The translations under genes and the position numbers were made by a program. This document shows positions 1 to 11,639 of a stretch of DNA of 11,639 nucleotides, one piece after another. The stretch is taken from the UHGV virus genome UHGV-0070899. One strand, 5' to 3'. Each line of letters begins with the position of its first letter. Position 1 is the first letter of the stretch. The notes beneath the pieces are model-generated. The model saw only the letters and a program-made list of their open reading frames with translations. It did not search any database and was not told the origin of the DNA. Source of the stretch: a virus.

Positions 1-69
1 AGTATTTTTAGTCATCCTGTTTACCTCTTTCTCAGGAAGTTTAGTCTCCAGGATTCCCGGGGCGGTTCA
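1..69 (-). mobile_element. Partial IS3-family insertion sequence (IS629/IS1203-like): terminal inverted repeat plus first 5 codons of orfA; element body lies left of the window
   Basis: Reverse complement of 1-69 reads TGAACCGCCCCGGGAATCCTGGAGACTAAACTTCCTGAGAAAGAGGTAAACAGG-ATGACTAAAAATACT, which I recognise from memory as the IS629 left end and the MTKNT start of its OrfA. Nearly identical inverted copy at 11571-11639. Confidence 0.75.
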
Positions 70-70
70 G

Positions 71-160
71 TCTGGTAAGTGCCGTATTGCTGTGTGGTAT
101 TCAGCATGTGCTGTACGACCAGAGGCAATTGGTGTTGGTCTGCCTAACCAGACTGCGTGA
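71..160 (+). pseudogene. 3-prime fragment of the P22-type major coat protein gene (last 29 codons), truncated upstream by the IS
   Basis: Frame open from the IS boundary to TGA at 158-160 translates [29 protein letters not shown], closely matching the recalled P22 gp5 C-terminus (...[27 protein letters not shown]). A terminator follows. Confidence 0.75.
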
Positions 161-167
161 TAACCAG

Positions 168-192
168 AGGGAGCTTCGGCTCCCTTTTTTAT
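168..192 (+). terminator. Rho-independent terminator after the coat gene
   Basis: Stem GGGAGC (169-174), loop TTCG, stem GCTCCC (179-184), then a run of six T (185-190). Confidence 0.6.
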
Positions 193-204
193 CTGGAGAC
201 AAGC

Positions 205-441
205 ATGACACACATGATCTTTCGTCATGGCGACATGAAGAAGTGGAAAGGCGTTGGCTACGACTTTGAAATCGTGAAAGCCGAAGAGCTTCAGGAATAT
301 CTGGATGCTGGTTGGTTTTCACATCCTGATGACCTTTTGAAGGATGTTGCAGAGCCAGAGCCAGAGCCAGAAGAAAAACAGCGTAAAAAGCCTGGTCGAA
401 AACCTAAGGCGGCAGCAGATGAACCTGACAACGAAGGGTGA
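205..441 (+). CDS. Small hypothetical protein (78 aa), acidic PEPEPE stretch and basic KKPGRKPK tail; occupies the slot between coat and gene 4
   Basis: ATG at 205 preceded by GGAG (195-198) with a 6-nt spacer. The longer GTG-157 version in the ORF track would run through the terminator, so it was trimmed. Overlaps the next gene's start by 23 nt. Confidence 0.5.
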
Positions 442-919
442 TTTAGTCCTTGCAGCATTACGTAAGCTCGGTGTTGCATCAAATGCCACGTTAACCGATG
501 TCGAACCGCAGTCTATGGAAGACGGGGTCAACGACCTTGAAATGATGATGGCTGAATGGCTTGGCGGTGATGTGTCACCTGGTATCAACGTTGGCTACAT
601 TTTTGCTGATGCAGATGTCGCTCCGGATCCGGGCGATGAGCACGGCTTATCAAATAACGCTATCAATGCCGTCATTTTCAACCTTGCCTGCCGCATTGCT
701 CCAGATTATGCGCTGGAAGCGTCAGCAAAACTTATAACCACTGCCAGATACGGGAAAGAGCGACTCGTCAAACTGTCTGCAATGGACAGAGCAAAAGCCG
801 CTAAATGTAAGTCCGGTTATCCAAACCGTATGCCTGTTGGTAGCGGTAATCAGTTGGCGAAGTGGAACGGTTGGAATTACTTCCACCGGAAGGAACCTTG
901 CGATAACGGGAGCGAATAA
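419..919 (+). CDS. P22 gp4-like tail accessory / head-completion protein (166 aa)
   Basis: From ATG 419 the protein reads [47 protein letters not shown]... and later [27 protein letters not shown], matching recalled P22 gp4 ([33 protein letters not shown]...[14 protein letters not shown]). Same length as P22 gp4. The ORF-track start at 344 is an upstream extension. Confidence 0.85.
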
Positions 920-2338
920 ATGCCGATTCAGCAACTTCCGCTTATGAAAGGTGTCGGCAAAGACTTTCGAAACGCCGACTATATCGACTATCTGCCAGTG
1001 AATATGTTGGCTACACCCAAAGAAATCCTGAACAGCAGCGGATATCTTCGCTCATTCCCGGGCATTGCCAAACGTTCTGATGTGAACGGCGTATCGCGAG
1101 GCGTCGAGTACAACATGGCACAGAATGCTGTTTATCGCGTGTGTGGTGGCAAACTGTATAAGGGCGAAAGTGAGGTCGGTGATGTTGCCGGAAGTGGTCG
1201 CGTATCAATGGCGCATGGTCGAACATCACAGGCGGTAGGCGTTAACGGGCAACTGGTCGAATACCGCTATGATGGCACGGTTAAAACCGTCTCAAACTGG
1301 CCTGCAGACAGCGGGTTTATGCAGTATGAGTTAGGTTCTGTTCGCGACATTACGCGTTTACGTGGGCGTTATGCGTGGTCAAAAGACGGCACTGATTCAT
1401 GGTTTATCACTGACCCTGAAGACGAATCGCATCCTGACCGCTACAGCGCACAATATCGAGCCGAGTCTCAGCCTGACGGCATCATCGGCATCGGAACATG
1501 GCGAGACTTCATCGTCTGCTTTGGTTCATCGACGATTGAATATTTCTCCCTGACGGGGGCAACCACCGTTGGTGCCGCTTTGTATGTCGCACAGCCATCG
1601 CTGATGGTGCAGAAAGGCATTGCCGGGACTTACTGCAAAACGCCGTTCGCCGATTCGTATGCGTTCATCAGCAATCCGGCAACAGGTGCGCCGTCTGTGT
1701 ATATCATCGGCTCCGGTCAGGTATCACCAATCGCCAGCGCGAGCATTGAGAAAATTCTTCGCTCCTACACTGCTGATGAACTGGCTGATGGTGTGATGGA
1801 ATCGCTGCGATTTGATGCGCATGAACTGCTGATTATCCACCTTCCGCGCCACGTCCTCGTGTACGACGCATCTTCAAGCGCCAATGGTCCGCAATGGTGT
1901 GTGTTGAAAACAGGCCTGTATGACGATGTGTACCGCGCTATCGACTTCATTTACGAAGGAAATCAGATAACGTGCGGCGATAAGCTGGAATCGGTTACCG
2001 GGAAATTGCAGTTCGATATCAGCAGCCAGTATGGGCTACAGCAAGAACACCTGCTGTTTACTCCGTTGTTCAAAGCGGATAACGCCAGATGCTTTGATCT
2101 GGAGGTGGAATCATCGACGGGTGTTGCTCAGTACGCTGACCGCCTGTTCCTCTCTGCAACCACTGACGGCATAAATTACGGGCGTGAGCAGATGATTGAG
2201 CAGAATGAACCGTTCGTTTACGACAAACGCGTTTTGTGGAAGCGAGTAGGGCGCATCAGGAAAAATGTTGGCTTCAAACTGCGCGTTATCACTAAGTCGC
2301 CTGTCACTCTGTCTGGCGCTCAGATAAGGATTGAGTAA
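920..2338 (+). CDS. P22 gp10-like tail accessory protein (472 aa)
   Basis: Same length as P22 gp10 and in the expected position after gp4. Stop of the upstream gene abuts the ATG (TAA-ATG); GGAG at about 909-912. Confidence 0.8.
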
Positions 2339-3186
2339 TGGCGGATTCGAATCTCAATGTGCCGGTAATCATTCAGGCTACACGGCTCGACACATCAGTC
2401 CTTCCACGCAATATCTTCTCGCAGTCGTATCTGCTTTACGTTATCGCACAGGGTACTGATGTTGGTAATGTGGCTAACAAGGCCAACGAGGCCGGACAGG
2501 GCGCTTATGACGCACAAGTCAGGAACGATGAGCAGGATGTGATTCTCGCTGACCATGAGCAGCGAATTTCTGCTGCGGAAGCAACGCTTGTTAATCATGA
2601 GGAGCGAATCAGCCAGGCAGAATCAACTCTTCAGGAACATGAAACACGAATAGCTCAGAATGAAAGCGATATTGCGTCGCTTGATACCAGAGTTCAGTCG
2701 CTGGAATCGCAGGTTTCAGACCATGAAACGCGCATCGATGCTCTGGAGTATGCCACTACTCGCAAGAAGTCAGAGGTTGTTTACTCTGGCGTATCTGTAA
2801 CCATCCCGACAGCGCCGACCAGCCTTGTTAGCCTGCTGAAAACGCTCACGCCATCATCCGGCACGTTGGCACCATTCTTCGACACCGTTAACAACAAGAT
2901 GGTTGTGTTCAACGAGAACAAAACCTTGTTCTTCAAGCTGTCGATCGTCGGGACGTGGCCCAGCGGAACCGCAAACAGGTCAATGCAGCTAACCTTTTCC
3001 GGATCTGTTCCTGACACACTGGTTAGCAGTCGTAATGCGGCGACAACAACCGACAACATCCTGTTAGCTACGTTCTTCAGCGTGGATAAAGACGGCTTTC
3101 TTGCCACAAATGGCAGTACGTTAACCATTCAGTCAAATGGGGCGGCGTTTACTGCCACAACCATCAAAATCATTGCGGAGCAGTGA
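2338..3186 (+). CDS. Tail needle (P22 gp26 family) with heptad coiled-coil core and extra C-terminal knob-type domain (282 aa)
   Basis: N-terminus [43 protein letters not shown] resembles the gp26 N-terminal domain. Residues 72-138 are regular heptads ([21 protein letters not shown] ...). The C-terminal ~140 aa is absent from P22 gp26 (233 aa), and the 282-aa length matches what I recall for the Sf6 needle. Start overlaps the gp10 stop (TAATG). Confidence 0.85.
2551..2751 (+). repeat. Degenerate in-frame tandem repeat (about 42-nt unit, 14 codons; HE-RI---E-TL-- x about 4.5) encoding the needle coiled coil
   Basis: Periodic protein motif [15 protein letters not shown] / [14 protein letters not shown] / [14 protein letters not shown] / [14 protein letters not shown] / [10 protein letters not shown] read from the translation. 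Confidence 0.5.
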
Positions 3187-3653
3187 TGGAAATAAAGCTC
3201 ATCGATAATCCGGTGAAGCTTGCAGAATTCCTCAACAACCCGGCAAACACGGGAAATATCGTAGACAGTGGAGATAGATACTACATCAAGCCTGATGCGG
3301 TATATCTCGGCATCTACGAAGGATTAGTGTTGGCTGGCGTTCATGAAGTGCGTAACTTCTGGCATAGCGTTGTTGAATGCCATGCGGTGTACGCCCCCGG
3401 ATTCCGTGGCGAATATGCACTGCAAGGGCATCGATTATTCTGCAAATGGCTTCTCGAAAACTCACCATTCCTTAACAGCATTACCATGGTTCCTGACACC
3501 ACGAAATACGGACGGTCAATTATCCGTTTGCTTGGCGCTACCCGTGTTGGTCACCTTGATGATGCGTACATGAGTAACGGAAAACCGGTTGGAATCACCC
3601 TCTATCAATTACCTCGTTCGAAATATGAGGAGCTAATAAATGTTAGTACTTAG
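3186..3653 (+). CDS. Virion protein in the P22 gene 14 position (about 155 aa); function inferred from synteny only
   Basis: ATG at 3186 overlaps the needle gene stop (TGATGG). Lies between needle and ejection-protein genes as in P22. I do not recognise the sequence itself. Confidence 0.55.
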   Translation: MEIKLIDNPVKLAEFLNNPANTGNIVDSGDRYYIKPDAVYLGIYEGLVLAGVHEVRNFWHSVVECHAVYAPGFRGEYALQGHRLFCKWLLENSPFLNSITMVPDTTKYGRSIIRLLGATRVGHLDDAYMSNGKPVGITLYQLPRSKYEELINVST

Positions 3654-4299
3654 CGAAAGCTTCAAGAATAAATTGCTTCCCATGAATGGGTATATGAAAG
3701 GCGGCAGCGACTCCGGCTCTAAAGCCCAGGCACGCGCAACTGAAAAGGGTATCGAATTGCAGCGCGAAATGTGGCAGACGAACATGCAGAACCTTGCACC
3801 GTTCACGCCACTCGCTCAGCAGTATGTATCAGAGTTGCAGAATCTTTCCTCTCTTCAGGGGCAAGGTCAGGCGCTTAACCAGTATTACAACTCCCAGCAG
3901 TATAAAGACCTTGCAGGGCAGGCGCGTTACCAGAGTCTGGCAGCAGCAGAGGCAACGGGTGGATTAGGCTCTACAGCAACAGGAAACCAGTTAGCAGCAA
4001 TCGCACCTACACTCGGTCAAAACTGGCTGTCAGGTCAGATGAACAACTACAACAATCTGGCAAACATTGGCCTTGGTGCTCTTACAGGTCAGGCAAACGC
4101 CGGGCAGAACTACGCTAACAACGTCAGCCAGTTGTATCAACAGCAGGCGGCGGCAGCGGCAGCAAATGCCAATAAACCGTCTGGTTTTCAGAGTGCTCTC
4201 GGTGGAGCTGCTGCAGGTGCTGCGATGGGTGCTGCAATCATGCCTGGTTGGGGTACAGCAATTGGTGCTGGCGTCGGTCTTCTTGGTTCACTTTTTTAA
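3640..4299 (+). CDS. Ejection (DNA-transfer) protein, P22 gp7-like (219 aa)
   Basis: Strong SD GAGGAG 7 nt upstream of ATG 3640. Size and position match P22 gp7. Gln/Asn-rich middle and Gly/Ala-rich hydrophobic C-terminus. Confidence 0.7.
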   Translation: MLVLSESFKNKLLPMNGYMKGGSDSGSKAQARATEKGIELQREMWQTNMQNLAPFTPLAQQYVSELQNLSSLQGQGQALNQYYNSQQYKDLAGQARYQSLAAAEATGGLGSTATGNQLAAIAPTLGQNWLSGQMNNYNNLANIGLGALTGQANAGQNYANNVSQLYQQQAAAAAANANKPSGFQSALGGAAAGAAMGAAIMPGWGTAIGAGVGLLGSLF

Positions 4300-4311
4300 T
4301 GGAGGTGTCTC

Positions 4312-5724
4312 TTGGCTACATGGCAACAGGCTGGTAATTCAGGCGCGCTTCTTGCCGGGTTGGGCGGCATGAACTCCAACGCTCCAAGAGCAAGTGATGC
4401 AGACGCCACACTTGCATACATTCGACAGAACAACGAAATGGAACGATCAGGTCGCAATAACATCGGCCTTCAGGCGTTACAGGGACTTGGTAGTGTCGCT
4501 CAAATATATCAAGCCGCAAAGCAACAGGAAGAGAATGCTGAATTCCAAAAAGAATATGCGGCAGCCATCCAGTCAGGTGATCGACAGCAGGTGCGAGATC
4601 TGATGACCAAATATCCTGGTCAATTAGAGAAGATTCAGTCTGGTATGAAGTGGGCAGACGAAGACCAGCGTGATGAAATTGGCAATCTAGCGGCAGGCGC
4701 TCGTCTTGCGGCATCGTCTCCAGAAGCAATGCAATCATGGCTGCAAAACAACGCCAAGGAACTGACTCGCGTCGGTGTTGACCCTAATAACGTTGCTCAG
4801 ATGTATCAGCAGAATCCTTCAGGGTTTGGTGAGTTTGTTGATCACCTTGGAATGGCTGCTCTTGGCCCAATTGATTACTTCAATGTTCAGGACAAGATGG
4901 CTGGTCGTGAGATTGACCGAGGTAGGCTGGCAGAGACAATTCGCAGCAATCAGGCTGGCGAAGCACTTCAGGCGAGAGGGCAAAACCTTTCCTATCAGTC
5001 AGCAATGACTGGGCACAATATCGCAGCACAACGCTTGGCTCTGGATCAGCAAGAGTTCGGGTTTAAGATGCAGCAAGCACAGGAAAAGGCTCAGCAGTTG
5101 ATTAGCGAAGCACCTAAGCTGTCAGTAAACATGGAAAAAGGCATTGAGACGGCTGTAAACAATGCCACAGCATCATCAAATTCAGCCAATTCTATGAGTG
5201 CGCTAGCTCAACAGTTCAGAGCAGAAAAACCAACGACAGGTTTGTTCGGTAACGCACAGAACATGTTCGCAAAACTTACCGGAAGCGATACGACATTGCG
5301 TGATTTGCGCATTCGCCAAAATGCCCTTGTTAACAGTCAGGTTCTTAAATTCCTACCTCCCGGCCCCGCAACGGATAAAGACGTTGAGATCGTTCGTCAG
5401 GGTGCACCAACTGACATGGATAACCCTGAGACGGTCGCAAGATGGCTTGATGCTATGGCAAACCTTGAGCGACGAAACGCGCAGTTTAATGAGTTTAAAG
5501 CCGAGTGGATGAGCGCGAATGGCAACCCTGGACAATCGCGTAATGGCGGTCAGATATTGGGGTTGGATGTTAAAAAAGGTGAATCATTGGGAAGTGCCGT
5601 TAAACGGTATATGTCAATGAATACTGACGCAGCGCCAGCGCAAGATTCGCCACCTTCAGGAGAACCACGGAATCAGGTTGGGTCATATACCTCAAAATCA
5701 GGCATTCAATTTACGGTGGAATGA
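4312..5724 (+). CDS. Ejection (DNA-transfer) protein, P22 gp20-like (470 aa), apparent TTG start
   Basis: Size matches P22 gp20 (about 471 aa) and order is conserved. GGAGG at 4301-4305 lies 6 nt before TTG 4312; there is no in-frame ATG until codon 20. Confidence 0.7.
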
Positions 5725-7664
5725 TGAAAGTAACTGCAAACGGTAAGACATTTACCTTCCCTGATGGTACGAGCACGGAAGATATTGGATCTGCAATTGA
5801 TGAGTATTTTGCTGGTCAGGCTGTTCAGCAGCAAACAGTTAATCAACCAACTCAAAACCAAGAGCAGCCTGTAGAACAGCAAGATGGATTTATGTCTGAC
5901 CTTGGCGAAGCAGTAAAAGAGACTGGTCGCGGACTGGTTCAGGCTGGCGTAAACGTGGCAAACATACCAGCATCAGTTGCCGATGCTGTAACAAGCGCGG
6001 CGGCATGGGCTGGCGGCAAACTCGGCATTGGCGATGGTACATATCAACCAGCGCCACGAGCAACAACGCAGGGATTAGAGCAGGTATTTGGACTTCAGCA
6101 AGGTGCTCTGACTCCACAAACGACAGAAGGTAGGGTGTTTGCGGAGGCATTGCCTTACCTGGCTACCGTTGGAGTTGGCGGCGCTTCAACGCAGGCTCCA
6201 ACACTTGCTGGTAGAATTACTCAAGGTGCAGCCCGTCTTCTGGCAGAAAACGCAGTCGGATCACTTGCCGCAAACAGTGAGAAAAATGATGCGGGAAAAC
6301 TGGCAACAGATATAGGTATTGGCATGCTAACAGGTGGTGCTGTTAATACTGTTGCAAAAGGGATTGGGCGTGGAATAACAGCCTTTAAAGGTGATATTGC
6401 GCCAGAAGTGGCGAAAAAAATTGCCACATCAGAATCGATGGGCGTGACACCAATGACATCTGATGTTATCACGCCGAAAAATGCTTTCACTCGCGGCCTT
6501 ACTCAGGATGCCGAGGGGGCTTTGCTCGGGACAGGCTCAAAGCGAGCGGAGCAATATGCAACGCGTAGTAAGTTGGTAAGTAATTATTTTGACCGTTTTG
6601 GTGAGTACAACCCGGATGATGTGGTGAAATCTCTGACCACCACGTTAAGGGGACGGAAGGATGCCGCTGGCGCTGTTATCAATGACGTCACCAATAAAAT
6701 GGGTAATGCCGCAGTTGATACCACAAATACCATGAATGCTCTGAATACAGCGATCGCAAGACAGGAACGGCTTGGGACGTCTGCCAATCAAAGCCTGCTT
6801 ACATCATTGCGTAACCTACGTGAAGAATTAGCAAACCCTGCAACTGATTTGGATGTTACGTTTGATCTCTTGCGTCAGCACAGAACAGCATTTAGATCCA
6901 ATGTTCAGGGAGATGCTATGGTCTTCCCCAACCAGGCAAAAGCAGCTACCAATATGGTAGAGAATGCAATGTCAAAAGATCTTCGTAACGCAGTTGCAAA
7001 AAACCTCGGTGCATCAGACGCAGCAAAATACCTTAAAGCAAACTCCGATTATGCAAACGTTTATAATAAGGTGCTTAATAAAAACATTGCTAACAAGCTC
7101 AACAAGGCAAGCAGTGAAGCCAGTCCTGAACTTATAAATACCGTTGTATTAAGCAGAAAACCATCTGACGTGAAACGAATCTGGAGCGCATTGGATGATA
7201 AAGGGAAAGATGCTATGCGTGCAGCTTACGTCAGCAAAATGGCGGAAAAGGCCGGTGACTCTCCAGCCAAGTTCATCACTGAAGTTAATAAGCTTAAATC
7301 TCAGTCAGGCGGTGAAATTTACAACACTATTTTTTCTGGAAAGCACATGAAAGAGCTTGATGCTCTTCATGAAGTTCTACAGCAAACAGCAAGGTCAGAC
7401 ACCGCAAATGTAGTAACTCAGACGGGGCAATCGCAAGCCAACAGGATAAGGACGATTGGCGCAACTGCGACTCTTGGCGTATCAATGGGGCTTGAGGCTG
7501 GTTTCGGTGCAATGATGCGCTTGTATGAGTCCAAAGCAGCAAGGAATGCTCTCTTACGTCTGGCAAACACCAAAGCAGGAACACCAGCCTATGAAAGAGC
7601 GCTAAATAATGCTGCAAATGCTATACGCCCTATACTTGCACCCCAAATTACAGCAGAACAATAG
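5721..7664 (+). CDS. Ejection (DNA-transfer) protein, P22 gp16-like (647 aa)
   Basis: N-terminus [33 protein letters not shown] matches my recollection of P22 gp16. Start overlaps the gp20 stop (ATGA). Last gene before the tailspike. Confidence 0.75.
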
Positions 7665-7715
7665 AATAAATAATTAACTAAGCACATAACTACTGACAGA
7701 TAACCAACGCAACGA

Positions 7716-7738
7716 CCCAGCTTCGGCTGGGGTTTTTT
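7716..7738 (+). terminator. Rho-independent terminator between gp16 and the tailspike gene
   Basis: Stem CCCAGC (7716-7721), loop TTCG, stem GCTGGG (7726-7731), then G plus six T (7733-7738). Confidence 0.6.
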
Positions 7739-7797
7739 ATGCCCAAAATTCACCGTGGCCATGCTGCGGCGATTCCTTGTATCTGGAGCAAATTAAA

Positions 7798-9759
7798 ATG
7801 ACAGATTCAATAAATGCCAATGTTGTAGTGAGCATGCCTTCTCAACTCTTCACTATGGCGCGTTCTTTTAAAGCCGTAGCCAATGGAAAAATTTATATCG
7901 GTAAAATTGACACTGACCCGGTAAATCCTGAAAACCAGATTCAGGTTTATGTGGAGAACGAAGACGGCTCTCACGTTCCTGTTTCGCAACCAATCATCAT
8001 TAACGCCGCTGGTTACCCTGTATATAACGGACAGATTGCCAAGTTCGTTACTGTGCAGGGTCATTCTATGGCTGTTTATGATGCATATAGTGCACAGCAG
8101 TTCTATTTTCCAAACGTGCTGAAGTATGACCCTGATCAGTTGCGACAAGAACTTGCTGGTCCTGATGGATATACTTTAATTCCGTCTATGCCAATACATA
8201 TTCAAATGCAAAAATGGCGTGACGATGGTGATATTAGGGGATGGGGATGTGTTTGCGATGGCGTTGCTGATGATTCAGACAACTTTCAGGCTGCAATTGT
8301 TTATTCAGAAGCGCACGATCGGCAATTATTTATTCCTGGGCCGATAAGAATCACGAAGAAAATCACGTTTACAAAGCCCCCTCAGTTACGTGGTTTCATG
8401 TACTCGCCGCCAGTAATTGGTAATTTTCAGGGCACCCCATACGCACACAAGGGATGCATAATCTATTCAGAGGTTGCATCTGGGTACTGCATAGAAATAA
8501 ACCCGCCAAGTAATAATCAGTACATACGCGGTCTGAACATTATTGACGTTCACGTACTGGCAAGTGGACCAGGTGTTTCAGGAGCTGGAGTATTAATAGC
8601 AAACTGCGGATGGGGTGGTTATGTTCGTGGACTTGTTGTTGAAGGATTCCATGGTGGTGGGCTGACTCTAAGTCAGTTGCAAGATACACTTTTTGACCAA
8701 TTGGAAATTCTAGATTGCGGAACAGATGGTGATGTATCTGGTGCCGGTAGATATGCTTTAACAATCAATAATGGCTCCAACATCCTGGCATTCAACAGAT
8801 GCAGGATGGAAGCTAACAACGCGCAAATGCATATTATTAATGGGGGCCATTTCGAGTTTAACAATTGCCATTTTGAGCAAGGTGATTATCCGAATTGTTC
8901 TCTTGGTCAAGAGTTTCAGAGAATAAATAGATATCCATCTATTGTATTGCAGCGGTGCAGCAATGTGAAATTTATAGGTGGTATGATTTTTGGTGCGACA
9001 CTTCAGCAACAGATGTCTGTTCATTCGGTAACTCCATCTCAGGCAGCATACAACTTTTCTATTGGAGGTGACTGCACGAACGTAATATTTGAAGGGACAA
9101 CCTTAGGATTTGGGTATGGGTCAGGAAAAATTATAGAGCACCATGGAAGTGGAAGTTTCAGTAATTGTAACTTTGAAAATATGTGCACAGAAGTAGCCCC
9201 AATTATACTCGACGGTAGTATTCTGTTTACAGGAAATAATGTTAGTTATACCGATAATTTAAGCAGCAATGTCTTTATAGGAATGGAAGCATACCTTGCA
9301 ACTATCAAAGGTAATTTCTTCGGTTGCATAAATAGTTCATCTGTAAATAAAACATCTGGAGCTTTGTTTACTGGCAGCAAATTAAGAAAGGCAAGGCTTG
9401 GTATCAATCAATATGTCATAAGCAAGATGAGCATGTTTACAGACGGAGGTTTGATATCCATAGACCAAAGCACTGAGGGATTCAGTCCCTTGTCAACAGG
9501 AACTCCAGCCATCAATGCATCAAGTCCTAATACGATTTACTTTTTTAGCTCTCCAGGAACCGTCACTGATTTTACAGGAATCATTGATAATCAGAGGCCT
9601 ACATTCTTAAATGCCAGCTCTGGAAACGTCACATTTCAAAATGGCCCCGCCCTTCATTGCAAGGGAGGAGTTAATGCGGTTGTCCCTCCTGGCGAGATGA
9701 TCACATTTATGTACAGTGGATTTTCTGGAGTCAAGCTAGAGATTAGCAGGACATTTTGA
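7798..9759 (+). CDS. Tailspike: P22-family head-binding domain (residues 1 to about 114) fused to a distinct beta-helix-like receptor-binding domain (653 aa)
   Basis: From ATG 7798: [60 protein letters not shown]...NVLKYDPDQ, matching the conserved P22 gp9 / Sf6 / HK620 N-terminal domain. The remainder is Gly/Asn/Ser-rich with repeated rung-like motifs ([18 protein letters not shown]). GGAG 9 nt upstream. The ORF-track start at 7777 is a TTG extension. Confidence 0.9.
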
Positions 9760-9767
9760 AATTATAT

Positions 9768-9784
9768 GCCCCTTGGATAGGGGC
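9768..9784. terminator. Hairpin between the convergent tailspike and GNAT genes, possibly a bidirectional terminator
   Basis: GCCCCT-TGGAT-AGGGGC, followed by AT-rich sequence on both sides. Sits between the tailspike stop (9757-9759) and the GNAT stop (9801-9803). Confidence 0.4.
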
Positions 9785-9800
9785 GATTTCATAGTATTTA

Positions 9801-10559
9801 CTAGATCTCTATCTCAATGCTATCAGGTAAATATTTTTTATATTTAAGCAGAGATAATTCGATTTCTTTCTTTGATATCTCAAATAAAATATCAAGTTCA
9901 GTTTCACCTGTTTTTTTTGCTCCAAACCTTTCATGGAATTTTATTACCGATGTATTACCCTTTCTTACATCAAAATGAGATTTTGCGAATCCAAGCTTAA
10001 GTGCATATGTATACAAAAGAAGTGCAGATTCTATTGCATAATGTGCAGGGGCGTTATCTACTATTACCCATGATCCCCAGCAAAAAGAATCTCCCACTTG
10101 GTCATACATCCTGATGGTGCCTAATCTTTCCCCTGAGTAGTTCTCAATAATAAAATATGCTTGACCTTTACTGCTTTCGTAATATTTCAACCAGTCACGT
10201 TGCTGCTCAACATCTGTTGAGGTTGAGCTGATAAATCTACCTTTCTTCTGATCGGTTCTTACTCTAACTATAAATTCAGCATCATCTTGGTTTGCGTTAC
10301 GCAAAACTATTGTTTTACCGACAATTTTTTTTGCTTTAGTGATTTGTGGGAATATATGGTAACCATTCATAGCTAATGCCTCCTGGACAACATCAGACTT
10401 GTCATTAAAAAGTATCTCTACGCATGAAATTGGTTTCGAGCTGTTGTGAACCACTGCAGCTCTAATAATTTCATCATGATTAAGAGATAGCAACTTAAGC
10501 TCATCTTGGCTAGTTTCTGGAGAGTTAGCCTTCCTGAAGTTATTGATAGTGTCGTTCAA
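9801..10559 (-). CDS. GNAT-family N-acetyltransferase (RimL/RimJ-like fold) with a 63-aa N-terminal extension; the alternative internal start at 10370 would give a 189-aa GNAT-only product
   Basis: C-terminal half carries GNAT hallmarks (TIVLRNANQDDAEF..., WGSWVIVDN...SHFDVRKGNTSVIKFHERFGAKKTGE). TTG at 10559 has GAGGA 6 nt upstream; in-frame ATG at 10370 has a perfect AGGAGG 8 nt upstream. Gene is strongly AT-rich compared with the phage core. Confidence 0.8.
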   Translation of the reverse strand: MNDTINNFRKANSPETSQDELKLLSLNHDEIIRAAVVHNSSKPISCVEILFNDKSDVVQEALAMNGYHIFPQITKAKKIVGKTIVLRNANQDDAEFIVRVRTDQKKGRFISSTSTDVEQQRDWLKYYESSKGQAYFIIENYSGERLGTIRMYDQVGDSFCWGSWVIVDNAPAHYAIESALLLYTYALKLGFAKSHFDVRKGNTSVIKFHERFGAKKTGETELDILFEISKKEIELSLLKYKKYLPDSIEIEI

Positions 10560-10990
10560 AATATATCCTCATGTATGTCTATGTTCTTTCTATAACTTTT
10601 CTCTAAAACACAAGTTCAGCATTGACAATAGCAGCAAGCATCTTGTTTTCCTTTCTATAAGCATAGCTACCTACATCAATGCTTCATTTATAGTATGAGA
10701 AAATAACTCACGTTCATAATCATTTTAATTATTCTCTCTCTTCAATATGCTAAGTTACCATCTCAAGCAAACCATTTTGGTTATAGGTAAACATTTTTGA
10801 ATAAAATTTGCGGAATTTCGGAGTTCAAATAGCGATTGTTTATGGTTCTGTCTTTAACGGCCTCTTTTAATTGATAAAGCATTCGCAGCCATAATGGTTC
10901 AATGTTCATAGTTACACACATAATCAAACTCACACCTAAAAGAGATATTACAGTATAATCAAAAAACCTAGATATACAAAGCTTTGCGTT
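10560..10990 (-). promoter_or_regulatory. AT-rich non-coding leader upstream of the GNAT gene, containing a 10-bp direct repeat (CTTTCTATAA at 10586-10595 and 10651-10660) and a 12-codon upstream ORF
   Basis: No convincing ORF on either strand. The direct repeat and the short SD-preceded ORF (10603-10641, minus strand) were read directly. No promoter hexamers could be assigned confidently. Confidence 0.3.
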
Positions 10991-11006
10991 CTTCGATAGT
11001 GGTTAA

Positions 11007-11030
11007 GGTGGATCACTCCACCTTTTCATC
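11007..11030 (+). terminator. Terminator-like hairpin (+ strand) of unknown cognate transcript
   Basis: GGTGGA-TCAC-TCCACC followed by TTTTCATC. The minus-strand version is not followed by a T-run. Confidence 0.3.
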
Positions 11031-11326
11031 AAGCCAGTCCGCCCACCACTGCATCATTTCTCTGCGCTTATCGTGGCAGATGCCTCACTATCACACGGTG
11101 ATGGTTCATTACTGGTTTGCATAATGGATAGAGAACTGAGGATAAAAGATATCCCAAAACCCAAAAATCTCATCTTTAGGATTTGCAGAAAGGGAGGCGT
11201 GAACAGATACCTGCGCATGAAGACGGAACTAGTCCAGATGTGATATTTGTGGTGATCACATACATCATCAACGATGCTCGTTATGGTGAGTTTGATGACT
11301 ACCCGCTGAAGTGAAAATTGTGTTGT

Positions 11327-11346
11327 GTACCAAATTGCGTACCAAA
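11327..11346. repeat. Two direct copies of GTACCAAA spaced 12 bp apart, candidate integrase arm-type or other protein-binding sites
   Basis: gtaccaaattgc-gtaccaaactaa read directly, about 55-75 bp from the proposed host/phage junction. Confidence 0.3.
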
Positions 11347-11386
11347 CTAAAATCACAAATCATGAAGCCCTTGTTCATGGCGGTTC

Positions 11387-11449
11387 TCAGGGGTGTTGCG
11401 CGTAATCGTGAAACAAAAAGGTAGATTGTTGCTTACCGTCATTCATCAT
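11387..11449 (-). pseudogene. sbcB: 5-prime fragment of exonuclease I gene: first 16 codons intact, then divergence and a stop after 4 more codons
   Basis: Minus-strand translation from 11449 is MMNDGKQQSTFLFHDY-AQHP*. The first 16 residues match the recalled E. coli SbcB N-terminus (MMNDGKQQSTFLFHDYETFGTHP...). The match ends at about 11401. Confidence 0.55.
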
Positions 11450-11570
11450 TAGGTTAAATCCGTTATTTCTGCTGTCTGCCAGAGTATCAAATATCACCGT
11501 GCTAATCAGCTTTAGCGCGACAATTTGACAGCGAGTGACAACAGATCATGTCAGATAAAAATGAGAGGGT

Positions 11571-11639
11571 TGAACCGCCCCGGAAATCCTGGAGACTAAA
11601 CTTCCTGAGAAAGAGGTAAACAGGATGACTAAAAATACT
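11571..11639 (+). mobile_element. Partial IS3-family insertion sequence (IS629/IS1203-like): terminal inverted repeat plus first 5 codons of orfA (ATG at 11625); element body lies right of the window
   Basis: TGAACCGCCCCGGAAATCCTGGAGACTAAACTTCCTGAGAAAGAGGTAAACAGG-ATGACTAAAAATACT. Differs from the left copy at one base (GGAAAT here, GGGAAT in the left copy). Confidence 0.75.

Follow-up and report, generated by a model that had tools for sequence, protein, structure and literature searches.

What does it mean when a stretch of viral DNA begins and ends in the same short piece of an insertion sequence (IS), in opposite orientations? Both termini of the stretch analysed here, UHGV virus genome UHGV-0070899 (11,639 nucleotides, called the window throughout), are left ends of an IS629-like element, and between them lie genes of a P22-type prophage. 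The window was very probably a contig of a decayed prophage, integrated in sbcB of Escherichia coli, that ends in two facing left ends of IS629 with their left inverted repeats (IRL) pointing inward. Nothing in it falls outside known kinds: known IS629 copies border an Sf101-like prophage in decay. The points of wider interest are only a nested series of junctions on the coat gene and the footprints of recombination between IS629 copies.

The site of integration could be read near the right edge. The published attachment core of Sf101 and phage 2851, two phages that use the sbcB 5' end for integration, is the 13-bp sequence CGTAATCGTGAAA (PMC4159516); positions 11401 to 11413 (plus strand) matched it exactly and marked attR. 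The core forms codons 13-16 of a stranded native sbcB start at 11401 to 11449 (minus strand), which reads MMNDGKQQSTFLFHDY in translation and runs on into phage DNA past the core. At the int side of related loci (numbered here with the prefix L), the functional sbcB begins MTDTDKQPTFLFHDY, so that 5' end was supplied by the phage. The codons upstream of the shared FLFHDY core had been replaced on integration (window 11401-11449; L030 6150-7574), which left the native MMNDGKQQST behind at attR and gave the functional gene, at attL, the phage-derived start MTDTDKQPT. From 11450 to 11570, where IS629 had inserted, the sequence was native DNA from between dacD and sbcB, collinear with the empty sites L001, L012, L015, L019 and L020. 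Both marks of an sbcB-type prophage were found, the 13-bp core in the sbcB 5' end and a P22/Sf6-type late gene set, and in the interior we recognise the right-hand third of a P22/Sf6/Sf101-like prophage integrated in sbcB, natively oriented towards dacD and with attR as its end. The prophage of strain Z30 is one example of an intact prophage with the same layout.

Inverted IS629 ends and the breaks of the contig

Positions 1 to 69 were the reverse complement of positions 11571 to 11639 with a single mismatch. Read from the inward tip outward, both edges consisted of TGAACCGCCCCGG, then G or A, then AATCCTGGAGACTAAACTTCCTGAGAAAGAGGTAAACAGGATGACTAAAAATACT, on the minus strand at 1-69 and on the plus strand at 11571-11639, with the tips TGAACCGCCCCGG at positions 69 and 11571. 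The mismatch paired window position 56 (C) with 11584 (A, plus strand) and fell on IS position 14, giving GGGAAT in the left copy and GGAAAT in the right copy. Past it, both copies contained the start of orfA, ATG ACT AAA AAT ACT (MTKNT), at 15-1 on the minus strand and 11625-11639 on the plus strand, reading out of the window on either side. The preliminary description of these edges was exact, as it was for their inner flanks, the 3' end of a P22-type coat gene from position 70 and native DNA upstream of sbcB at 11450-11570. A search with the 69-mer, allowing up to three mismatches, returned exactly these two sites in the window, and no match was found in 200 dinucleotide-preserving shuffles (chance expectation 0.00). 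The left edge (1-69, minus strand, G14 and T33, the element's body lying past the left edge) was of the subtype that we call b, identical to the IRL of full copies of 1309-1310 bp in L016, L019 and L030. The right edge (11571-11639, plus strand, A14) was a second IS629 left end, its body lying past the right edge, and its junction, GAGAGGGT/TGAACC, was present in every related contig that extends that far.

The elements could be named from the full IS copies containing these 69 bases in related contigs, which were 1309-1310 bp long and encoded a 108-amino-acid (aa) HTH_Tnp_1 protein and a 295-aa rve protein (OrfA and OrfB), or a fused 404-aa call, with a far end of TGAACCGCCCCGGGTT(T)CCTGGAGAG. 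The window's 69 bases were identical to these copies, with the terminal repeat start TGAACCGCCCCGG at both edges. Two subtypes, a and b, with 53 differing positions, occurred at the locus. An isoform of IS629 is expected to share at least 95% nucleotide identity with the reference element (ISfinder practice). Over 1309 bp, the a-type was 99.8% and the b-type 99.5% identical to GenBank phage records annotated as IS629 (AJ304858, LC567824 and HQ424691, labelled by their depositors 'insertion sequence:IS629' or 'IS3 family IS629'). In IS629, orfA (HTH) and orfB (DDE/rve) are joined by -1 frameshifting; in the strain Z30 copy, RefSeq marks an 'AL1L pseudoknot'. Published IS629 subtypes are 4-5% apart, make target duplications of 3-4 bp and prefer prophages (PMC3271280), figures that the divergence of a and b and the 3-bp duplications described below match. 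Judged from sequence, the identification of both edge elements as IS629 (IS3 family), already proposed in the preliminary description, is supported.

Compared with IS629 of O157:H7 and Shigella (isoforms IS1203 and IS3411), the window edges had the same terminal sequence and MTKNT start, and the relatives' copies shared length, OrfA/OrfB, 3-bp duplications (GGT and TAA) and two coexisting subtypes about 4% apart. The prophage location also fits the pattern in O157, whose IS629 copies are found in prophages in 62% of cases (PMC3271280). No difference in kind was seen over the 69 bases of each copy inside the window; the host belongs to a generic E. coli lineage. The suggestion that the IS pointed to an O157 or Shigella background found no support, as the one named relative was E. 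coli TZ118 and another a metagenome scaffold, and IS629-like ends occurred in most complete E. coli genomes. TZ118 is among the pig and chicken isolates surveyed in China (PMC9430128).

The exact positions of the termini were informative about the assembly. In the window, 55 bases were exactly complementary (1-55 versus 11585-11639), the last difference between the two copies was at IS position 14, and each end comprised 69 = 14 + 55 bases. Two related contigs ended in the same way: L044 had 77 complementary bases and no copy difference (77 = 0 + 77), and L049 had 127, with the last difference at IS position 33 (160 = 33 + 127). In all three, the end thus equalled the last difference between the contig's own two IS copies plus k. 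Values of 55, 77 and 127 are common k settings of SPAdes. Because three contigs obeyed the same rule, the window edges are breaks of a de Bruijn graph at a repeat, and the IS end is indeed multicopy, in up to 50 places per E. coli genome; the earlier suspicion of contig breaks inside a multicopy IS was well founded. Inverted IS ends at both contig termini are therefore an assembly signature from which k can be read, and as a caution, such termini are no evidence for a transposon or an inversion.

Related loci and the traces of IS629 recombination

Two different unique flanks on one IS end are impossible in a clonal genome, and position 14 differs between the edges, so at least two copies must be present. 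That at least two copies lie in inverted orientation, as first described, was confirmed by a 149-kb contig and by a complete genome (CP095446, E. coli TZ118; L016 and L030), which carry them as separate copies. Where the 11.5 kb could be compared, related contigs differed from the window by 0-5 substitutions, apart from a 4-bp gap at the junction in one class of contigs (class C, below); L033 had five substitutions and hexamer indels. The two junctions recurred in at least 15 independent assemblies, including the 149-kb contig and the complete genome. Exact scans for the left junction with 0-30 bases between the IS tip and GGTAAGTGCC returned none from genome, metagenome and viral contig collections, and neither junction occurred in complete RefSeq E. 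coli genomes, where matches ended at window position 67/70 on the left and 11570 on the right.

The 149-kb contig, JBBBSI010000009.1 (GCA_037153835.1; L014/L032/L042), spans the whole window at 99.83% identity and reads sbcB, full int, an IS66-family element with an IS110-family insertion, an IS629 fragment (442-1), the coat remnant through to attR, a complete IS629 and dacD. Its right copy was a complete element of 1309 bp between attR and dacD (L032), about 90 bp upstream of dacD in L014. The empty site read GAGAGGGT/AGTCAC in L001, L012, L015, L019 and L020, and the occupied site in L032 read GAGAGGGT, IS629, GGTAGTCAC. Comparison of the two sequences shows that the right copy inserted simply, by ordinary copy-out/paste-in transposition, into the DNA between dacD and the stranded sbcB 5' end, where it duplicated the 3 bp GGT. 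A copy in int had a TAA duplication (intact int in L032 versus split halves in L030). The left copy, at the coat gene, lacked a matching duplication, and its flanks were int and coat. We infer that the left junction is secondary, formed by insertion or recombination of IS629 near an older IS629 tip with no single clean insertion.

TZ118 carried a more rearranged form. Its left part comprised sbcB, the N-terminal part of int, a complete b-type IS629 (L030 8562-9870), the coat remnant and an internal deletion bounded by IS1; its right part comprised a tailspike fragment, an acetyltransferase gene of the GNAT family, attR, an IS629 fragment (1-442), an IS66/IS110 block, the inverted C-terminal part of int, IS629 and dacD. 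The IS1 (L030 10406-11102) replaces window positions 595-8450, from gp4 to the N-terminal part of the tailspike, and is a further, independent IS-bounded deletion. The right inverted repeat (IRR) of the left copy abutted int at codon ~281 next to an intact sbcB in two relatives, TZ118 and the metagenome scaffold L036/L043; in the latter, the IS joined to int was the copy on the attR side, and the link may be a path chosen by the assembler.

Among these near-clonal relatives, the IS629 tip met the coat gene at three nested positions, each found in at least three independent assemblies (compared at window 70-73, L032 6417-6434 and L030 9871). In class A (+18), an a-type tip stood at coat nucleotide (nt) 1192 (TTCA/GATATCAACACTCTGTCTGGTAAG; L032, L033 and L038). 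Class B (+4) had a b-type tip at nt 1206 (TTCA/GTCTGGTAAG) and comprised the window, L034/L035, L036, L044, L047 and L049, and class C (+0) had a b-type tip at nt 1210 (TTCA/GGTAAG; TZ118, L039, L040 and L041). As the retained bases all match the intact coat gene, the series is one of nested losses. Classes B and C shared an int/IRR junction (L036, L030) and an int-C/IRL junction (L044/L045, L030), and since these other rearranged junctions were common to both, the 4-bp step occurred at an existing junction between IS and flank and was no independent insertion. Class A carries the other IS629 subtype, so that the step from A to B was no simple erosion; a b-type copy that inserted 14 bp away from the resident tip and then recombined with its tandem neighbour would explain both the shift and a hybrid copy.

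IS3-family elements are reported to delete adjacent DNA and to 'creep' (IDE model; PMC8860574), and the +18, +4 and +0 junctions resemble deletions that start at an IS end. Microhomology events linked to IEE (the IS-excision enhancer) have been described for IS629. The steps here were only 14 and 4 bp, and with the +18 junction of another subtype, creep cannot explain the whole series. The series may document, in nature, how an IS3-family element moved into its flank by 14- and 4-bp steps, a reading that we hold only tentatively. Its causes could be micro-deletions adjacent to the IS end, or repeated insertion beside the resident end with tandem recombination, combined with flip-flop inversion. 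Nested junctions of this kind could be used to study how IS3-family ends naturally erode neighbouring DNA.

The larger loss was common to the group. All relatives lacked the prophage from just past int (or from int codon ~281) to coat codon 397-403 and carried IS elements instead, which agrees with the IS-linked prophage deletion first suspected. About two thirds of the prophage is thus lost, with the early, lysis and head genes gone. In the class A contig the gap was bounded by the two ends of an IS66-family element. As inspection by eye and translation showed for both sides, one end abuts IS629 position 442, and at the other, coding sequence for the C-terminal part of TnpC runs up to the int stop codon; this stretch reaching the int stop codon means that the IS66-family element bounds the large deletion. 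The nest of elements at L032 2029-5974, also present at L045 12019-16328, consisted of this IS66-family element (end GTAAGCGTAAAGCC) at position 442 of IS629, with an IS110-family element inside its tnpC. The window is thus a case of textbook prophage decay in E. coli: what remains are the tail and ejection genes and an acetyltransferase gene, embedded among nested elements (IS629, IS66-family, IS110-family and IS1) between which recombination continues.

Inversion had also been proposed. At the insertion site of the b-type copy, the intact int reads ...GATGGGTAATGTTATCCG. In TZ118 the TAA duplication at this site was split and inverted, with GGGTAA/IRR at L030 8561/8562 and IRL/TAATGTTATCCG (reverse complement) 10.5 kb away at 19027/19028. 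The dacD-side IS629 of TZ118 (L030 19028-20237, equivalent to L016 2931-4239) was a hybrid, b-type at positions 1-793 and a-type at 830-1309, including an a-specific single-base gap at position 1293. A hybrid a/b IS629 together with a split, inverted TAA is the classical footprint of homologous inversion between two IS copies and proves an inversion between IS629 elements next to the segment. IS-mediated inversion therefore stood for the neighbouring block in TZ118 and is no more than possible for the window's own 11.5 kb. Two simple routes to TZ118 were rejected. One or two inversions alone, starting from class A, predict an a-type tip at +18, and the actual left copy was pure b-type at +0; a duplicative (Shapiro-type) inversion would put IRR beside the coat remnant, where IRL was found. 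The shortest path that we found, itself unproven, would take about five events: the segment flips, a b-type copy inserts beside the resident tip, tandem copies recombine, int receives an insertion, and an inversion follows.

Arrangement in the genome of the window

The left junction of the window was of class B, and its closest relatives were L036/L043, with one difference, followed by L035, L044, L048 and L049 with two each. In the right copies of L036/L043 and L049, only positions 14 and 33 were a-type and the sequence was b-type from position 93. The window's right copy combined A14 with T33, a combination found in no other of the 16 related assemblies compared. Its T at 11603 (IS position 33) was private to the window, with C in all 16, and represents either partial conversion of the right copy to b-type or a private mutation; this base determines where a graph with k = 55 would break. 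The genome of the window probably groups with L049 and L036 rather than being of the TZ118 type with a C33T change. In such a genome, the 442-bp fragment and the hybrid copy would have recombined as direct repeats, with loss of the IS66/IS110/int-C block, and the most likely order is sbcB, int', IS629 (pointing left), the 11.5 kb, IS629 (pointing right) and dacD, with two long copies.

A competing arrangement, which we consider possible but lean away from, makes the right element a 442-bp IRL fragment interrupted by IS66 (with IS110), followed by the inverted C-terminal part of int and a third, hybrid IS629 beside dacD. Past attR, most class B contigs ran in this way through the 442-bp fragment of IS629 and the IS66/IS110 block to the C-terminal part of int, in inverted orientation, and two of them (L044 and L045) ended in another b-type IRL; overall, the fragment arrangement was seen in L030, L034, L035, L037/L046, L040, L044, L045, L047 and L048. 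With k = 55 and a C33T change, IS positions 15-92 would be identical to the left copy and the contig would break exactly at base 69. Against it, L036/L043, nearest by single-nucleotide differences and sharing a G at 7986, and L049 have right copies that are b-type from position 93, and the left terminus at 14 + 55, and not at 55, hints that the window's genome held no other G14 tip, such as that of the int C-terminal/IRL junction.

Several points weigh against the order with two long copies and, more broadly, against our account of the window. Six class B contigs (L034, L035, L044, L045, L047 and L048) carry at attR only the 442-bp IS629 fragment, interrupted by IS66, and given a single C>T at IS position 33, the window could resemble them; the T at 11603 has no counterpart in the assemblies compared. 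Since each IS is present in the window only up to its base 69, the full structure had to be taken from relatives. Finally, to view the window as a contig of a short-read de Bruijn-graph assembly with k = 55 assumes typical assembler behaviour.

The order with two long copies leaves room for a further, rather doubtful alternative, in which the 11.5-kb segment lies the other way round between sbcB and dacD, or flips within a population, so that attR leads through IS629 and int' to sbcB and the coat end lies on the dacD side. Homologous recombination between inverted copies could flip the segment, inversion between IS629 copies is proven at the locus in TZ118, and the closest relative, the metagenome scaffold L036/L043, reads attR, full IS629, N-terminal part of int, sbcB and yeeD onward. 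Both long assemblies, L032 (149 kb) and the complete genome CP095446, instead keep the segment in native prophage orientation. The IS629 allele of L036 is moreover a mosaic (b-type at 93-1067, a-type at 1136-1189, b-type at 1293) that could be a collapsed consensus of two copies; as the L036/L043 element is mosaic and the coat-side end has only 20 IS bases, the attR-int' link may be an arbitrary path, and its value as proof of inversion was downgraded. Short reads cannot tell the two orientations of the window's segment apart.

We rejected, as very improbable, the idea that the two IS629 copies and the 11.5 kb form a compound transposon that brought the tailspike and acetyltransferase genes in as one unit. 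The geometry, an inverted IS pair around cargo, is that of Tn5 and Tn10, and IS-mediated mobilisation of oacB out of the locus has been proposed for Sf101 (PMC4159516). Unlike in Tn5 and Tn10, the two copies had independent junction histories, no common target duplication and inner ends that are both IRL. The right copy has its own GGT on both sides and the left outer flank is integrase with no duplicated target, so that no single duplication surrounds the unit; the cargo sits in native prophage position and orientation, ending in the attR core and the stranded sbcB 5' end, and no copy of the unit was found at another locus among the related loci examined. Least credible of all was a single IS629 copy, or none, with the inverted termini a hairpin or chimeric assembly artefact: inverted terminal k-mers are typical of de Bruijn graphs, but this reading is contradicted by the different unique DNA on the same IS end, the difference at position 14 and the recurrence of both junctions across independent assemblies.

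The prophage remnant

The window is a prophage remnant and no phage; beginning at coat codon 402, it does not hold a complete inducible phage genome. At 70 to 160 (plus strand), the IS629 tip cuts a P22-type coat gene, leaving the last base of codon 401, codons 402-431 and the stop; the junction is nt 1206 of the intact 431-codon gene, and the remnant matched positions 398-422 of the 423 in the Pfam profile P22_CoatProtein. The genes that follow on the plus strand encode a 78-aa open reading frame (ORF; 205-441), a gp4-type tail accessory factor (419-919; Pfam P22_Tail-4, E=1.3e-58), a gp10-type packaged-DNA stabilisation protein (920-2338; Phage_stabilise, E=3e-298), a tail needle with an Sf6-type knob (2338-3186; Phage_tail_NK, E=2.9e-116), a gp14-like protein (3186-3653; DUF2824, E=7.5e-64), a gp7-type ejection protein (3640-4299; P22_gp7, E=1.6e-91), a gp20-type ejection protein (4312-5724; Inj_translocase, E=8e-71), a gp16-type ejection protein (5724-7664) and a tailspike (7798-9759; Head_binding, E=2e-64). 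Our Pfam scan gave no family for the gp16-type protein, which was assigned through a precomputed Phage_P22_gp16 match on the identical product in L014 and L032; the other seven of the eight members of the P22/Sf6-type late gene set were matched in the scan itself. Gene order was collinear with Sf6, Sf101 and P22-like prophages of E. coli.

Prophages of the Sf101 and phage 2851 type in sbcB share the attachment core and the sbcB 5' end site with the window, and Sf101-type prophages also share the Sf6-like late-gene order and the acetyltransferase slot between tailspike and attR. Remnants of this type disrupted by IS elements have been reported in Shigella flexneri (PMC4159516), and relatives of the window likewise carry an Sf101-type int fragment and IS beside sbcB. 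The differences from Sf101 lie in the acetyltransferase, which belongs to GNAT (Acetyltransf_3) whereas oacB of Sf101 is of the Acyl_transf_3 type, in the receptor domain of the tailspike and in the host, E. coli.

This acetyltransferase, a 252-aa protein encoded at 9801 to 10559 on the minus strand (Pfam Acetyltransf_3, E=1.2e-10; GC 37-38%), had a weak, sub-threshold match to NCBIfam PseH, a sugar N-acetyltransferase. Its gene occupies the slot where Sf6 and Sf101 hold O-antigen acetyltransferases of another family, and it may be a serotype-modifying moron. The same protein was encoded by P22-like prophages whose integration site is a different one (L013, L017 and L021). In the tailspike, likeness to most P22-like prophages ended near position 8141, past the conserved head-binding domain; the receptor-binding part was divergent and lower in GC (37-44%), with 98-99% matches in a few prophages only (L013, L017, L018 and L021).

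The 78-aa ORF occupied the same position in P22-like prophages (L014, L022-L031) and had no match in Pfam or NCBIfam. A hexamer repeat, (CAGAGC)n, at ~350-367 within it, which appears as an EP repeat in the protein, varied among near-identical relatives, with three copies in the window and L032, four in L033 and five in L038.

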